From positions 96,001 through 160,000 of IMG/VR virus record IMGVR_UViG_3300032123_000052: a DNA stretch of 64,000 nt; one strand, given 5' to 3'. This document shows positions 5,652 to 31,932 of this stretch, piece after piece; position 1 is the first letter of the stretch; each line of letters begins with the position of its first letter. This stretch comes from a virus (Duplodnaviria > Caudoviricetes). The translations under genes were made by a program, and so were the position numbers. The notes beneath the pieces were generated by a model. That model saw nothing but the letters and a program-made list of their open reading frames with translations. It did no database searches and was not told where the DNA came from.

Positions 5652-6689
5652 TTGTTTAACCAATGGAGGTTATACATGAGTCCCAGAGAAAAGACAAGCT
5701 TTGAGGATCATCTCAACATTGTTGAGTCAGGTCAAGACAAAACTGCCTCTGCCCCAAAAGGCGAAGGCACTTTGCTTGACAAACTGGCGAGCGAACTCGG
5801 CATCGGAGAAGAGAAAACTGCAGAAGTAAAAGCTCCCCCTGAAACTGGTGGTGAGAAAGCTGCTCCAAATGGAGCTGGTGCCGGATCTTCTGTAACAGAT
5901 GGAAAAGCACCCGCAGCAGAAGGTGAAGTTCAGCCTGCGGCTTCGAGTGTAGCTGGCGCAGCACCTGCTGTCGTAGCTGCCACTGAAGGTGTTGCTACTC
6001 CTCAAACCGAAATTGCTGGCGGAAACGCCGCTGAAGCCGCAGCCGGAGAACAGCCTGCTGCAACAAAACCAAACGAAGGTCTTGCAATATCCGCTGGCGA
6101 TGGGGTTGTAACTGATGCTAACCAGCTTCATAAGACTCCTGCCGCTGTAATGGAAGCCGCAAAAAATTCTGATGGTACTGTCATGGGCGCAAAGACTGCA
6201 GAGGAAGCAGGGGCTATTGGTAAAAAAATAGCTGAAACTTTCCAGGCGCATCTTGAAAAGACAGCTCAAGACCAGGAATACACTGAGGCTCTTGTTTTAC
6301 TGAAAGAGGGCGGCCTCCTTGAAGGTTATAATATCAAGGATGAGGGCTTAACAAAGGAAGCCGGTGAATCTGTTGACTATCTCCAGAAAATTGCCAACAA
6401 AGAACAGCTTTCCAGAGAAGATATAATCGGTTCAGCATATCAGGCAATTGAAATGCAAAAAGAAGCTGAAGAAGCGGAGGTTCAGGGCCGTGAAGATGCT
6501 CAGAATCTGGTTGCCTCAGTTACCGAGCTGATTGAAAAGAAAGCTGGAGAAGGTGCACCAGCGGCACCAGCAGCACCAGCAGCACCGGCGGCACCTGCCA
6601 CTGATGAGCAGGCAAAGCTGGCAGAGTTAATGAATGATGAAAATGTTGTTAAAGCGGTAAAGACTCTGAAAGAAAAAAATCTTCTCTAA
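5652..6689 (+). CDS. scaffolding/core protein (likely start 5677, MSPREKTS)
   Basis: Acidic, Ala/Glu/Pro-rich, between protease and capsid genes; about nine KxA/S/G motifs; GGAGG RBS before 5677. Confidence 0.65.
   Translation: MFNQWRLYMSPREKTSFEDHLNIVESGQDKTASAPKGEGTLLDKLASELGIGEEKTAEVKAPPETGGEKAAPNGAGAGSSVTDGKAPAAEGEVQPAASSVAGAAPAVVAATEGVATPQTEIAGGNAAEAAAGEQPAATKPNEGLAISAGDGVVTDANQLHKTPAAVMEAAKNSDGTVMGAKTAEEAGAIGKKIAETFQAHLEKTAQDQEYTEALVLLKEGGLLEGYNIKDEGLTKEAGESVDYLQKIANKEQLSREDIIGSAYQAIEMQKEAEEAEVQGREDAQNLVASVTELIEKKAGEGAPAAPAAPAAPAAPATDEQAKLAELMNDENVVKAVKTLKEKNLL
6553..6597 (+). repeat. 9-bp tandem repeat GCACCAGC(A/G) encoding (APA)n
   Basis: gcaccagcg gcaccagca gcaccagca gcaccggcg gcacctgcc read directly. 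Confidence 0.85.
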
Positions 6690-6707
6690 AATAGGAGGGG
6701 GTTTTTC

Positions 6708-7208
6708 ATGGTCTTTAAAAATATTGGCCAGTTGATCCTGAGTCATTTGGCTCCGGGTCAGCAGGCTACCGAAAAAACAGCTTCTGAAAGCTATACACCT
6801 GAAGAGGCTAAAAGAATTTCTGAAGGCTTGGCCAAAGTGGCATCATTTCCCTGTAAAGAGGAAGTGTACACTTCGGTGCAGGAGATGATGAAAATAGCTT
6901 CTGAGTGTTTGGCATATATGACGGAATCTCTTAATTCCGCACAAGAGCGAAATACTGGGCTTGAAAAGGCTGCCCAGGTTCGGCTGGTCCTGGACGACTT
7001 GATTCATTCAGGTCTCGTCTCAGACGATAGTGATGCCGAAGAGAAAATTGCCGAATTGATGAAGAAAGATGAAAAAGGTCTGGAAGTCATTAAAGAGGCA
7101 ATTAAACTTGCTCAAAACGGTGAAGGAGAAAGTTTGATTTTCGAAAAAGCTGCAAATGATTCAGCCGAACCAGATAAAAAGGCTGGAATGTTTGACGGCG
7201 TTCTCTAA
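6708..7208 (+). CDS. acidic helical scaffold-like protein
   Basis: EKTAS, AKVAS, MKIAS, EKAAQ and EKAAN motifs; position in head operon. Confidence 0.55.
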   Translation: MVFKNIGQLILSHLAPGQQATEKTASESYTPEEAKRISEGLAKVASFPCKEEVYTSVQEMMKIASECLAYMTESLNSAQERNTGLEKAAQVRLVLDDLIHSGLVSDDSDAEEKIAELMKKDEKGLEVIKEAIKLAQNGEGESLIFEKAANDSAEPDKKAGMFDGVL

Positions 7209-7232
7209 TCACCAATAACAAGGAGTATAACA

Positions 7233-7706
7233 ATGCTTGAGATGTTAACTCTCATGAACAAGGTCGAGCGTGTTTCCCGTAGAATCGATCCTGACAATTT
7301 CGTAGCAGTTCCCGGTATTTGGGCAGAACTTGATACTGATGGTAGTATCAAAAATGTCACAACCGACACGCCAGGGCTTATGAACAAGCTCGTCATTGGC
7401 AACGCCTCCAGCAATGTCTATGAATCACACGATGTGAGTGTTGGTCGTATCACTACCGTCGAATCATACGGCGATCGTTTCAAAGTTGATTCAGAAGGCT
7501 ATTCCGGAACAATTGTTGCCGGTGAGGACTTAATTGTTTCAACAACGTCCGGCACCGAAGGTAAGCTGGTTGGTATTGCGAATCAAGCAGAAGCTACTGG
7601 CAACTATGAAGTTGTTGCTCGTGCAGAAGAGGTGAATGGTACTGCAGGCTATATTGTTTTCAGAACACTTTCACCTGGAACTGTTGCAGCTTACGCAGCA
7701 GCGTAA
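7233..7706 (+). CDS. capsid decoration/cement protein
   Basis: Small beta-rich Gly/Thr/Val protein immediately upstream of the major capsid gene. Confidence 0.6.
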   Translation: MLEMLTLMNKVERVSRRIDPDNFVAVPGIWAELDTDGSIKNVTTDTPGLMNKLVIGNASSNVYESHDVSVGRITTVESYGDRFKVDSEGYSGTIVAGEDLIVSTTSGTEGKLVGIANQAEATGNYEVVARAEEVNGTAGYIVFRTLSPGTVAAYAAA

Positions 7707-26763: not shown

Positions 26764-27582
26764 ATGCATATGCCACCTCTAACAAAAGTGGATCTGCAAG
26801 AGTTGATAGACCAATCAGGCGGTTGGGACTGGGAAGATGCTCACGTATCTCAGGCTTATATTTCCCCTCATGGTATTGACACAAAAGAATCGATTGCAAT
26901 AAATGATATTATTGAATCGGGAACCGTTCTTATCGCCGCAGGTCCGTCCGATCTGGATAAGGCTGTAGAAGATCCTGATGGTTTTAGGGTCGTCCCTATC
27001 GGTCTCATCGAAACGGCACAGATAAGTATGAATAAACCATTGAGTCGGATATTCGAAATCGGCTCAAAACTCAGCTATATTATACCGGGTCGTACCGTTG
27101 GTGGGATAAGTCTAAGCAGGGTATTTTTTGATGGACCAAGTTTACTTAAAGCAATATATATGGGCGAGGTAAAAGCTGACTTTGCCACACAGGATAAAAA
27201 ATTTGCAAAATTTACCTCGAATCCTTATCATGTGGATGGGGAAGAAAAATATCAGAAGTTTGCCAATATCGGTTCGGGAAACTTGGCGATGAACCTTGCC
27301 TCGTCTTTCTTTGAACAACCTATTGGTCTGGCGTTTTATTTCAAAGACCAGCAGGACGATACTGTCGGACAGACCTATTTTGAAGGGTGTCGTGTCAGCA
27401 CGCTCAATCTTGGTATATCAGCTAATATGAATGTGCTTACCGAATCTATCAATATGGAGTTTATTCGCTGCAGGCCAATTAACACTGCTGCCTCGAAAAA
27501 TTACATTAAGGGCGACAATCTGGCTGATCTTAATATTGTCTCTGCGCAGACCAACTGGGATCAAAGCGTTGTCGATGGTTAA
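26764..27582 (+). CDS. tail tube protein
   Basis: Follows sheath; IGLIETAQI...RIFEIGS...IPGRT.G.I.LSRVFFDG pattern. Confidence 0.75.
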   Translation: MHMPPLTKVDLQELIDQSGGWDWEDAHVSQAYISPHGIDTKESIAINDIIESGTVLIAAGPSDLDKAVEDPDGFRVVPIGLIETAQISMNKPLSRIFEIGSKLSYIIPGRTVGGISLSRVFFDGPSLLKAIYMGEVKADFATQDKKFAKFTSNPYHVDGEEKYQKFANIGSGNLAMNLASSFFEQPIGLAFYFKDQQDDTVGQTYFEGCRVSTLNLGISANMNVLTESINMEFIRCRPINTAASKNYIKGDNLADLNIVSAQTNWDQSVVDG

Positions 27583-27604
27583 TTGAGAAATTCTTCTAAT
27601 AGCT

Positions 27605-27640
27605 AAAAAAAAAGAGAGCTGATTTCTGCTCTCTTTTTTA
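27605..27640. terminator. bidirectional intrinsic terminator
   Basis: A-run AAAGAGAGC-8 nt-GCTCTCTTT T-run between convergent blocks. Confidence 0.8.
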
Positions 27641-27659
27641 TTTTCTCTAACTAAAACTA

Positions 27660-28030
27660 GACCGAGTTTGGCTATTATATTTTGGCGGAGCCGAAATTGC
27701 ATCTCCAGATGCCAAACCGTTCACCACCAGCACTTTTACTGGTGGTCTAAAAAAGTAAAAAATTTTTAACCCTGCTGAAACAGCAGAATATAAAAATTCT
27801 TAGAGAAAAAAAACTCCAACTTAATATCGCTCAGTATTGCATTTGTAATTACCACCACCAGTCACCCCGGGCCCATCCGTTGGAGACACCCCCAACCTTC
27901 CGATAACCATATAATTACCACTCCAGTGGTATTTTATACCTTGACGAAACGTCAAGTGTAAAATCTTGGAGTTAATATCAATCATATCCGTTGCTCATAA
28001 AAGTTAAAGTAAAATAACTGCTTTCATAAA
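27660..28030 (-). ncRNA. candidate structured RNA / hairpin array
   Basis: At least six hairpins (27699-27712, 27723-27746, 27772-27786, 27879-27896, 27916-27931, 27940-27956); two gain G-U pairs on the - strand; no ORF. Confidence 0.45.
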
Positions 28031-28035
28031 TATTA

Positions 28036-28587
28036 TTAACACATTTCGTTCTTTTTTATTTTTAATTTACCCATTTTTACCCACCTACAAATAGTCGTAG
28101 GCTTTACATGGTGTATCTCGGCATACTTTAAAAGTATGCCTGATTTAACTTTTTTCTTTGAACCAATTTTGGGCCCTCTCGTTAAATCCGTCTTAGGTTT
28201 AAACTCATATTCAATAGGCATTATCTCACCGCATTTCGCCCAACCGGGAACCCACCGGAAGGTTTTTCCATTTACTACAGCCAGAGCAGATGTCAGAGAT
28301 ATGTTAAACCCCCTACCCAATTCAGCAGCGCTTACACCATTCTTCAAACTCAATTGCCGGATTTTTTTTACCTGCGATATAGTAAGATTGGAACTTTTTA
28401 AGTATCTCTGCTGCATTTTTTTTGATACTTTTCTTGGAGGAATCAAATCAAAAACATGATGAAGCACACTATTTGGCCGGCAATTGAACTTTCTGGCAAC
28501 ATATAGTACAGCATACCCTTCATCCACAAGACTCCGTATCTGCTGTACCTGTGCCGAAGATAATTTGCTGTGATATTTACTTTTCAT
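28036..28587 (-). CDS. triple helix-turn-helix DNA-binding protein, 5' end displaced by IS insertion
   Basis: Two (K/N)L(S/T)..QV..IR...A..F repeats plus a C-terminal VKPTTICRWVK HTH; native start rebuilt at 29846. Confidence 0.7.
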   Translation of the reverse strand: MKSKYHSKLSSAQVQQIRSLVDEGYAVLYVARKFNCRPNSVLHHVFDLIPPRKVSKKMQQRYLKSSNLTISQVKKIRQLSLKNGVSAAELGRGFNISLTSALAVVNGKTFRWVPGWAKCGEIMPIEYEFKPKTDLTRGPKIGSKKKVKSGILLKYAEIHHVKPTTICRWVKMGKLKIKKNEMC

Positions 28588-28596
28588 AATTTTTAC

Positions 28597-29828
28597 GCAA
28601 GGAAACCTCGACCCTTGTGGTCGGGGAGGAATTGCGCCCTCCTATTAAATTAAAGTTTGACTATTTCAATACAAATATAGTATATTGTTTACTGTGAAAA
28701 CAATAAGAACTATTAAACTGAAATTCAATGGGAATCATAAAGCCAATCAAGTGCTTCCATGTTGGCTTAACGCCTGTAATTGGCTTTCTAAAATAGTCTT
28801 TGATTCTAAAGAAATTAACTCTAACAGGCTCTCTCAAGCATATTACAAAACTGTCCGTGAAAAATTTAAACTTACTTCCCAATTGACTTGTACCCTTTTT
28901 AGAACTGTTTCTGCAACATATAAAACTCAAAAAACTAATAAAGAATGGAATCTTTGTATTTATAGAAAGAAATCTATTCCCGTTGTTTGGAAAAGAGACT
29001 TTGCTCGAACCAAAAAAAACATCACTCTCTGGGCTGACCCTATTATGTTTCAAGATTCTCGACTTATTCCTGATAATTGGAAAGATTCTAAAATTTTTCT
29101 TAAAAAGGGACAGTGGTTTTTGAATTTGTCTTATGAAATTGACATCCCTGAACCAAAAGATAAAGGAACTATCGTAGGAGTAGATCAAGGAATCAAAAGA
29201 CTGTTTGTAGCTTCTGATTCTCAAAATAATAAATTGTTTTATAAATCAAACTATCTTAACCATAAACTTTCTAATATCCGAAAAGCAAGAGCTAAAGTAC
29301 AAACGGTTGGAACCCGTTCTTCCAGAAAACTTCTTGAAAGAATGTCTGGCCACGAGGCTTCCGTAACCGAACATGCTGTGCATGTTGCTTCTAAAAGACT
29401 TGTAAAATGGGCTTGTAAAGTAGGGGCGCGAAAGATTGTGGTTGAAGATTTGTCTAACATACGAGAGTCCTCTTTGAAAAAGGGAAAACAGCTTCGTAGT
29501 AAAATCAATCGCTGGCCTTATGCCTTGTTTACTTTTTTTATTACATACAAAGCTGCAACGCTGGGTATTACTGTTGAGCGGGTTTCCCCAAAAAACACTT
29601 CTCGCATGTGTAGCAAGTGTGGTCATATTGATGAATCCAATCGAAATGGTTTTTCTTTTAAATGCAAATCATGCGGTTATACCGCAGATGCTGATTATAA
29701 TGCCAGCAAAAATATTGCTGGACGCTATATGTCTATCGGGTTGAACTCGATAGATACAGGGATTAGTAAACACCCTGAAAACCAAATTATCGGTTAAAGC
29801 CCCGACCCTCGTGGTCGGGGTAGTTTAC
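28597..29828 (+). mobile_element. IS200/IS605-family solo-TnpB (IS1341-type) element
   Basis: Subterminal hairpins CTCGACC-cttgt-GGTCGGG and CCCGACC-ctcgt-GGTCGGG; TTTAC target on the left; ends GTAGTTTAC; removal restores an in-frame host gene; no tnpA. Confidence 0.85.
28685..29797 (+). CDS. tnpB: RNA-guided endonuclease TnpB
   Basis: RuvC residues GVDQG, VVEDL and ADYNA intact; CSKC...CKSC zinc ribbon; only + strand gene in the early block. Confidence 0.92.
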   Translation: MFTVKTIRTIKLKFNGNHKANQVLPCWLNACNWLSKIVFDSKEINSNRLSQAYYKTVREKFKLTSQLTCTLFRTVSATYKTQKTNKEWNLCIYRKKSIPVVWKRDFARTKKNITLWADPIMFQDSRLIPDNWKDSKIFLKKGQWFLNLSYEIDIPEPKDKGTIVGVDQGIKRLFVASDSQNNKLFYKSNYLNHKLSNIRKARAKVQTVGTRSSRKLLERMSGHEASVTEHAVHVASKRLVKWACKVGARKIVVEDLSNIRESSLKKGKQLRSKINRWPYALFTFFITYKAATLGITVERVSPKNTSRMCSKCGHIDESNRNGFSFKCKSCGYTADADYNASKNIAGRYMSIGLNSIDTGISKHPENQIIG

Positions 29829-29848
29829 TATTCTTGTTTTATCCATTT
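29650..29848 (+). ncRNA. predicted TnpB omega RNA with flank-derived guide TATTCTTGTTTTATCCATTT (5' boundary approximate)
   Basis: Inferred from established TnpB architecture; right-end hairpin visible. Confidence 0.55.
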
Positions 29849-29879
29849 AATTTTCTCCAATTGTTTAAGATGAGTTTAG

Positions 29880-30345
29880 TACTCATGTTATATAGGGAAG
29901 TGTGGAGATTGCTCCCCACACCCCCTTTGCAGTATACGATTCTAGCTGCAACTTACCATTGAGTAATAAAAAGGACTTTTATTTCCCAAGAGCCTTCAAT
30001 TATCGCTGAAGCGGCGATGGAACTTAGAACCATACTTGGAAAAGATTTCTCAAACTAAAGTTCGAGGAGTTCGGCGAGGTTATCGTTCCGCTGGGTTCTT
30101 ACGGCAGCATACGAGACCTGGCATCGAGATCCACGATCGCAACACTTCCCGAGCCGGTCGAGCCGACCACCACCTTATACGAGTCGCGCTTTGATTTACT
30201 CCAGTAAATCAGCGACCAAACCAAGATGTTGACCTTGCAGGTCAACGTCATTGGTTCTGAGTATAAGGTGGTATGAGTAAACGATGTTGAAACAACACCG
30301 CGTTCATATCCTTTGAGAAAAAAGGGGTAAAGAAAATAATTAACC
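29880..30345 (-). ncRNA. large structured non-coding RNA candidate, partly tmRNA-like
   Basis: Visibly GC-richer and ORF-free; 12-bp helix 30169-30180/30261-30272 closing a multibranch domain; 9-bp long-range helix 29895-29903/30142-30150; consensus promoter directly upstream. Confidence 0.65.
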
Positions 30346-30353
30346 CATTCACC

Positions 30354-30387
30354 ATAATAGTTATTTCAAATTTGTATAAAAAATAAC
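30354..30387 (-). promoter_or_regulatory. phage promoter motif copy
   Basis: GTTATT-N13-TGAAATAAC-TATTAT. Confidence 0.65.
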
Positions 30388-30394
30388 ATCAGTA

Positions 30395-30700
30395 TCATAC
30401 CCTTATCTTGTCGTAATATTTCTTTTCCTTTTGCAGACCCTCAATAACACTTTGAACCTTACCGTTATCAAAAATAATAACTGTCGGAAGAAACATAACA
30501 GAATATTGTATTGCTACATCTCTATCTTTAACGAAATCAAGCTCGACAAGCTCAACATCATTAATTTTTTTCATTATTTTTCTGAGAATCGGCTTTACCA
30601 CATTACAGTGGTGGCACAAATCGCTTGAAAAAAAGACAACAGTTCGCCTTTTCTCTATTAGAACCAGTCTTCTAAATGTGCAATTCGCCATTTTCTTCAT
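30395..30700 (-). CDS. thioredoxin
   Basis: CHHC active site; YSVMFLPTVIIFDNG cis-Pro motif. Confidence 0.85.
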   Translation of the reverse strand: MKKMANCTFRRLVLIEKRRTVVFFSSDLCHHCNVVKPILRKIMKKINDVELVELDFVKDRDVAIQYSVMFLPTVIIFDNGKVQSVIEGLQKEKKYYDKIRV

Positions 30701-31083
30701 TGTGTTTCATGAAACACATCGCCAAGAATGCTATCAACCTCTTCCTGAACAGTTTTTGGTGTCCTTCTTGTTCCTGGAAAAAATTCCTTCATATATGTGA
30801 ATCCTTCATGACAATTAGAACATGGCTTCCCGGTGTCAGTCCATGCTTCACAATACCCGCATCCCGATCTCCCAATGCGCTCATCATCTTCGATTTCTTC
30901 TATATCTTCTTGATATATTCTTAAACCACAACTAGTCACTTTTTGTATCGGCATTGTATTTAGTTGATCTGTAAAAAGATTTCTAGTGTCGATTTTAATC
31001 CATTCGCCTTCTATTGATTCAAGCTTTTTTGAATAACTGCCTAAGTACCTTTGGTAGCAATTACTCTTTAATCTTATTCTCAA
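30697..31083 (-). CDS. hypothetical protein with CxxC-CxxC
   Basis: CGYC...CSNC; GGAG upstream. Confidence 0.7.
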   Translation of the reverse strand: MRIRLKSNCYQRYLGSYSKKLESIEGEWIKIDTRNLFTDQLNTMPIQKVTSCGLRIYQEDIEEIEDDERIGRSGCGYCEAWTDTGKPCSNCHEGFTYMKEFFPGTRRTPKTVQEEVDSILGDVFHETQ

Positions 31084-31237
31084 TAGGATCCTCCTTTTTA
31101 TTATTGTAGTACATTTTTCTAATTCTTACCGGCCGTTCCCTGTCACTGTTTAAGGCATTGATGTTGTTTATAAAATGAGTAAATTTTTCTAAAAAGTCGG
31201 TTGGAATAGACAGGACGATATTAATTCTACCATCCAT
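31061..31237 (-). CDS. hypothetical protein (start taken at MDGRINIV)
   Basis: Coupled to upstream stop. Confidence 0.55.
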   Translation of the reverse strand: MDGRINIVLSIPTDFLEKFTHFINNINALNSDRERPVRIRKMYYNNKKEDPIENKIKE

Positions 31238-31932
31238 CAATCGCCTCTGGCGTCGTATATAGGTTCGAACCCCTTTGGCGCATCGTTCCAATTATCCATT
31301 TCGTGTGCAGCTATCATTTGAGGATACTCTCTTTTTACTAGCGCAATATTCTCGGCATCAGCAAGTAATATCATATTAGCCAGATATGTAACAAATGATC
31401 CTGATTTGTTCAAATACCAAAAGAATGATCCATAACCATAATTTCCAGACTTTTCGCTCGACCCTCTATTGCCAAGTGTCAATGGGGCGTCAACAACATC
31501 GCCAGCAAATATAACATCCCAAGATCCAGACACGTTTGATTCAAACAAATGTCGATATATATTCTTCAACCTCGCTTTGTTTTCAACATCAGCATTCATA
31601 ACGACAAATGCCAGCTGGCTGATAAATTTGCTAGGATGGTTTACATACCAGTCAAACGATCCCCTTTTAAACGGATATCCAACATCCTTCGGAAACTTAA
31701 GCGATTGCAACTCTATTTCCCGATTGATGGCCTTTTTGAATGCAACATTACTATAATCATTACCTTCAGTTAATTCCCTTGCATCAAACTGCCATGTTCC
31801 ATCTGGATCATCTGATGTTGTTGTAAACCAGTTGTTAAGCTGTTCGTCATACATATCATCATCATACGCATGGAAGATACATACGCCAAAATATTCCAAA
31901 TATAGCTCAGGTTCTACCCACTTGTATGGCAT
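31237..31932 (-). CDS. hypothetical protein with duplicated GSF..Y.N...F...LA...AD.EN domain
   Basis: Two internal repeats visible in the translation. Confidence 0.7.
   Translation of the reverse strand: MPYKWVEPELYLEYFGVCIFHAYDDDMYDEQLNNWFTTTSDDPDGTWQFDARELTEGNDYSNVAFKKAINREIELQSLKFPKDVGYPFKRGSFDWYVNHPSKFISQLAFVVMNADVENKARLKNIYRHLFESNVSGSWDVIFAGDVVDAPLTLGNRGSSEKSGNYGYGSFFWYLNKSGSFVTYLANMILLADAENIALVKREYPQMIAAHEMDNWNDAPKGFEPIYDARGD

Follow-up and report, generated by a model that had tools for sequence, protein, structure and literature searches.

A jumbo-phage TnpB element without a transposase, its predicted TAM TTCAT and an insertion-free allele as its predicted target

An IS605-type, tnpB-only element that lies immediately 3' of TTCAT (28583-28587) in a jumbo phage probably encodes a ribonucleoprotein (RNP) that cuts the insertion-free allele of its own integration site. 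The window, i.e. the whole stretch of DNA that was analyzed, comprises 64,000 nt and corresponds to bases 96001-160000 of a 208,085-bp IMG/VR virus record. Within it, a plus-strand open frame (28685-29797) is flanked on both sides by blocks of minus-strand genes. The mobile element that carries this frame occupies 28588-29828 (1,241 bp), and excision of exactly this segment gives the junction found in the sister contig L044, from which its length, the TAM TTCAT and the absence of a target duplication follow. The element is a non-autonomous, tnpB-only (IS1341-like) member of the IS200/IS605 family, a classification based on the absence of a Y1 TnpA from the element; with TTCAT and not TTTAC as its TAM, it is an ordinary representative of an element family that is already known. 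A megablast search of window positions 27000-31500 against GenBank phages returned no match, and the comparison set consists of 19 related loci from IMG/VR and metagenomes, whose TnpBs are 67-84% identical to the window TnpB.

Alignments of these relatives define both ends of the element. The left end (28588-28656, plus strand), whose geometry is that of IS608 (PMC3201880), comprises 18 nt to the hairpin foot, a variable pentamer that reads TTTAC in the window (28592-28596), a DNA guide GAAA (28602-28605), the hairpin itself (28606-28626) and an outer covarying stem GCAA/TTGC. At those loci whose contig includes the right end, sequence conservation extends as far as GGTAGTTTAC and no further, which places the right end at 29828; the final five bases, TTTAC (29824-29828, plus strand), form the TEM, which differs from the TAM TTCAT at positions 3 and 5. 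The left hairpin and its counterpart at the right end (29800-29820) are subterminal imperfect palindromes on the same strand and show compensatory changes among relatives. Insertion 3' of a fixed motif without target duplication is seen from the empty sister site, and the motif is invariant in 14/14 relatives. A left boundary beyond TTCAT, by which 16 conserved bases would be counted as element, was rejected: the bases to the left of TTCAT have no motif in common, and the empty site as well as the ribosome-binding-site spacings agree with a junction right after TTCAT.

A natural insertion-free allele exists in a related phage. The 815-bp sister contig L044, which aligns with the window at 89% identity along 686 bp, contains an empty site that reads TTTTCAT followed directly by TATTCTTTTTTTATCC, or, in longer form, GATATTTACTTTTCAT joined to TATTCTTTTTTTATCCATTTAAC. 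The guide-encoding flank of the element, TATTCTTGTTTTATCCATTT (29829-29848, plus strand), starts exactly where related copies diverge from one another, and the L044 allele matches it at 19/20 bases, with a single mismatch, G8T, at guide position 8. A right end followed by a 20-nt guide flank had been proposed in a sequence-only reading of this DNA, together with an intact TnpB and the absence of any further guide site in the window; the end at 29828 and the divergence of related copies at 29829-29848 agree with the first of these claims, and the last can be extended, as the flank occurs once in the whole 208-kb genome. The same reading had suggested that the empty allele is the target, and this stands insofar as the guide matches a real insertion-free sister allele, but not in the motif TTTAC or in the new TAM that it proposed.

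On the minus strand, the flank encodes codons 1-6 (MDKTRI) of an HTH gene that was severed by the insertion. This gene (28036-28587, minus strand) is cut after codon 6 and at present encodes 183 aa; the element lies antisense to it, within its first codons, and separates it from its Shine-Dalgarno sequence GGAG (29855-29858) and its original ATG (29844-29846). Its present start is the former Met7; this start codon and the two bases after it, ATGAA, read TTCAT on the opposite strand (28583-28587). The sister HTH protein (P0124; 189 aa, 85% identity) begins MDKKRIMKSKYH, and the start of the L044 HTH protein, MDKKRI joined to MKSKYH, is the one predicted from joining at TTCAT. A search of IMG/VR with the HTH protein for sister phages found no relatives. 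The possibility that the left end donates a ribosome-binding site to the decapitated gene was discarded, as the 13 nt next to the ATG contain no such motif. Flank homology between the window and the 815-bp L044 contig extends over 686 bp at 89% identity on the left and over 35 bp on the right; from window position 29864 onward (L044 1-94), all similarity is lost; this mosaic junction is 35 nt away from the insertion site on its right side.

The sequence evidence supports a TnpB that is predicted to be aimed at the insertion-free allele. The gene would be transcribed from its own promoter, for which a promoter-like site TTGACT-18-TATATT (28657-28686, plus strand) is found directly before the tnpB start and is kept in relatives. 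The 3' part of the transcript would yield an omega RNA, with the flank (29829 onward) as the template for its last 16-20 nt. An omega-RNA-like scaffold (29730-29828, plus strand; consensus fold) overlaps the final tnpB codons and consists of helix 1 (29730-29756), helix 2 (29758-29776), a short long-range helix and the right-end hairpin (29800-29820). These four helices, spanning the last 100 element bases, are paired in 97% of cells across 12 sequences; 14 pairs changed on both sides, in comparison to 2-6 in slid controls, none of 500 shuffles was as good, and the window sequence folded by itself has z = -5.9. As two of the helices sit within the final tnpB codons, a transposase-binding role is unlikely for them, and the covarying 3' fold supports a predicted omega-RNA scaffold. 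A search of Rfam revealed no omega-RNA family and just two chance-level matches inside tnpB.

Loaded with this RNA, the RNP would cut the insertion-free allele, in which TATTCTTGTTTTATCC directly follows TTCAT. The occupied allele would be spared because the guide-matching sequence is preceded there by TTTAC, whose third and fifth bases are not those of the TAM; the combination of TTCAT and guide is absent from the phage's own genome (208 kb), and the element's own allele is a predicted non-target. The TnpB cleavage mechanism has been established for ISDra2 and the ISGst elements (PMC8612924, PMC10055086). One consequence would be that the element is kept even if a TnpA excises it; where infections are mixed, related phage genomes without the element would either receive a copy of it or be destroyed. 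RNA-guided cutting of insertion-free relatives, as homing or as exclusion, is plausible on the available sequences, and we infer that it would take place between co-infecting phages. For the relative L044, exclusion is as likely as copying, since only 35 bp of right-flank homology and the mismatch at guide position 8 make this phage a poor partner for recombinational copying.

Alternatively, the element could be a purely selfish passenger: TnpB would only serve to put it back once a host TnpA has excised it, or the element would simply be a recent arrival, in either case without any measurable effect on phage competition. Near-identical copies at L005, L037 and L038 (99.8% mutual identity) occupy unrelated contexts and have in common a block of exactly TTCAT plus 1,289 bases, with GATCTTTTAC falling inside it. 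Such copies at several sites are a mark of recent transposition and not of homing alone, and the left-end hairpin, which is of use to a transposase only, is retained with covariation; together, they indicate that the element was probably moved recently by a transposase. The short right-flank homology in the sister also suits a passenger. However, the phage lacks a TnpA, as no match to the Y1 (HUH) TnpA (PF01797) is present in its 208-kb genome, and none adjoins the related TnpB loci at any relative examined, so that excision and restoration would occur only if a host enzyme acts. A hunt for host or partner TnpAs by way of TnpB relatives in 185,579 species genomes retrieved just two distant Nostoc matches with 29-32% identity, which leaves no close TnpB relative and hence no partner transposase in sight, and plus and minus alleles both exist in related phages. 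Overall, a passenger without influence on other phages is considered possible but rather doubtful. As a separate observation, loci L041 and L042, which originate from different samples, share the same TnpB insertion within 2,655 bases of 100% identity, beyond which they diverge totally, i.e. one insertion is found in mosaic phage backgrounds.

The RNA-guided cutting of the insertion-free allele further depends on an active nuclease. The coding sequence of tnpB (28694-29797, plus strand) most likely starts at the GTG at 28694 and encodes 367 aa, as does its database twin, while the frame opens at the TTG at 28685; residues are numbered here by the 370-aa translation P0001. The protein contains the Pfam domains OrfB_IS605 and Cas12f1-like_TNB, and Cas12f proteins are its closest solved structures by sequence. 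The AlphaFold model (mean pLDDT 83) reaches a TM of 0.74 to Cas12f over the full length and of 0.70 to ISDra2 TnpB. The three RuvC acidic residues noticed in the sequence-only reading were confirmed as D167, E254 and D337, placed by alignment to AsCas12f, and a zinc ribbon of the form CxxC...CxxC is made up of C309, C312, C327 and C330; all seven positions are unchanged in 20 homologues at 53-83% identity. Judged by these residues, the nuclease gene is intact. Phage records often contain TnpB genes: a match exists in 399 GenBank phages, every one of them below 60% identity, and on this comparison the window TnpB is placed in a metagenome-only clade that is less than 60% identical to any GenBank phage protein. 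The -10 hexamer TATATT (28681-28696 region) ends 7 nt ahead of the tnpB GTG, with no Shine-Dalgarno motif between them, and relatives display TATAAT, 7 nt and then ATG at this position; this spacing suggests that the tnpB mRNA may be leaderless.

Activity does not follow from intact catalytic residues, as IS608 TnpB proved inactive in assays (PMC10055086). The window TnpB could likewise be inactive or repurposed as an RNA-guided binder or regulator, or the RNA alone could matter. This is improbable in view of the constancy of the catalytic and zinc residues across the 20 homologues; domesticated TnpB regulators usually lose RuvC residues (PMC10705468).

TTCAT (28583-28587, plus strand) is unchanged beside the left end in 14/14 related elements, abuts the guide in L044 and is found in 45/52 viral contigs that carry the same left-end motif. 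The predicted TAM of the element is TTCAT, not TTTAC, which constitutes the closing five bases of the element and the variable pentamer within its left end. A TAM of TTTAC, with an element that begins at 28597 and an empty site of TTTAC followed by the guide, is scarcely credible: although TTTAC is present at 28592-28596 and again at the right end (29824-29828) and the HTH frame stays open after joining at TTTAC, excision of 28597-29828 leaves nine surplus bases (AATTTTTAC) that are missing from the empty site of L044, which refutes this reading, the pentamer varies among relatives (TTTAC, CTTAC, TTTGC, TTCGC, TCCGC, TTGTG) and travels with identical copies to different sites, the cleavage site would lie 9 nt instead of about 19 nt from the hairpin, and the sole perfect target in the phage's genome would be its own right-end junction, which the nuclease would then cut. 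With TTCAT as TAM, the best site in the same genome has 6/16 mismatches. The earlier statement that TTTAC plus guide rebuilds the empty site exactly is thus at odds with L044, whose natural site is TTCAT followed by the guide. An exact search of IMG/VR for the TTTAC-type empty junction, a pattern that rests on the wrong TAM model, gave no match. Nor does the element offer the testable new TAM that had been announced, as TTCAT is already known as the TAM of the ISGst5 IscB (PMC10055086). Since the right end closes with a TAM-like motif, a TAM read from the right-end junction is wrong and self-targeting.

Several characterized systems can be compared with the element. Like ISGst2 and ISGst5 of Geobacillus stearothermophilus, it has an IS200/IS605 frame with a left TAM and a near-identical right TEM that differ at positions 3 and 5, a nuclease predicted to be aimed at the donor joint, i.e. 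the empty site, and, in the case of ISGst5, the same TAM TTCAT (PMC10055086). Meers et al. distinguished the TAM from the right-end TEM by these two positions and attributed to the difference that the nuclease is kept off its own locus (PMC10055086). Unlike ISGst2 and ISGst5, the window element has no TnpA anywhere in its replicon, which is a jumbo phage, and its TnpB belongs to the metagenome-only clade with less than 60% identity to GenBank phages. Domain order and fold (TM 0.70) are like those of ISDra2 TnpB (PMC8612924; PDB 8h1j, 8exa), and so are the guide RNA predicted from the tnpB 3' end and the right end, the use of the flank as guide and a 5-nt TAM 5' of the target (PMC8612924); in contrast, identity to ISDra2 TnpB is about 15% and the TAM is TTCAT here, compared to TTGAT in ISDra2. 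In IS608 of Helicobacter pylori, cleavage motifs are located 19 nt 5' of the hairpin foot at the left end and 10 nt 3' of it at the right end (PMC3201880), and 4-nt DNA guides just 5' of the hairpins pair AAAG with TTAC and GAAT with TCAA (PMC3201880, PMC5934647). The window element likewise has subterminal hairpins, with the left site about 19 nt from the hairpin on its 5' side (18 nt from cleavage site to hairpin; 8 nt at the right end) and 4-nt guides 5' of them, with GAAA facing TCAT on the left and the AAAG/TTAC pair recurring on the right. The two differ in that IS608 has a TnpA gene and uses TTAC as the motif 3' of which it inserts, whereas the window element ends in TTAC and targets TCAT. 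Finally, the expected cut of a co-infecting relative's allele followed by copy-in or exclusion resembles the free-standing homing endonuclease SegF of T4 (PMC13565253), with the difference that SegF recognizes its site by protein, whereas the window TnpB would do so by RNA and a 5-nt motif.

The position of the element within the first codons of the HTH gene has parallels among its relatives. At 9/14 insertions (L004, L010, L012, L036, L037, L038, L040, L041 and window 28583-28587), a real antisense gene of 42 to 645 aa starts with ATGAA, of which TTCAT is the reverse complement. In this genome, about 8% of ATGAA sites are gene starts, which gives a rough binomial P of about 1e-7. Five reconstructed empty sites display a Shine-Dalgarno motif 5-10 nt upstream, a spacing that places the element between the ribosome-binding site and the start codon; with TTCAT as the complement of ATGAA, insertions of this kind amount to nine of 14, in comparison to the approximately 8% expected.

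The left-end type is also found beyond close TnpB relatives. Outside the window, the same phage carries an IscB gene (G000:C1:179028-180491; L034 3029-4492, minus strand) with RRXRR and HNH domains in a 487-aa frame, and the 3' end of this gene contains a homologue of the TnpB element's left end, in which TTCAT (genome 179244-179248) is followed by GCAAGGAAACC, a hairpin that covaries and GGAGGAATTGC. The phage's two OMEGA elements thus have a common left-end type and TAM. In L049 (positions 6496-7320; IMGVR_UViG_3300031278_000132), TTCAT and the same left-end motif precede a LAGLIDADG_1 ORF (192 aa, 6654-7232, E 2.6e-6), which is followed by a right-end-like hairpin ending GTAGTTTAT; this locus looks like an IS605-type frame with a protein-only homing endonuclease, in place of TnpB or IscB, as its cargo. 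The left-end core, GCAAGGAAACC-N18-24-GGAGGAATTGC, is widespread among IMG/VR viral contigs (52; L047-L098), where its partners are very different TnpBs (25-46% identical to the window TnpB) and one IscB, and TTCAT lies 9-12 nt upstream of the core in 45/52 of them. Tentatively, these loci could represent a phage-borne TTCAT lineage of IS605-type elements that lands at antisense starts, persists by RNA-guided homing without a transposase and swaps its nuclease cargo, although we do not consider this likely. If it were true, the exchange of TnpB, IscB and, on L049, LAGLIDADG would mean that the job of the cargo is homing as such.

The assignment of TTCAT corrects a tempting error, namely the inference of the TAM from the right-end junction in this IS605-type element family. 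The idea of RNA-guided homing or exclusion between phages is already in the literature, where 'transposon non-restorative homing' into co-infected phages is named in a review as a theoretical possibility, and the spread of TnpB elements between co-infecting phages in the manner of homing endonucleases has so far been theory only (PMC13565253). The window and L044 provide a natural pair of occupied and empty alleles in related uncultured jumbo phages, and because this pair is clean, with ends, TAM, TEM and guide defined, it offers a ready substrate for testing homing between co-infecting phages.
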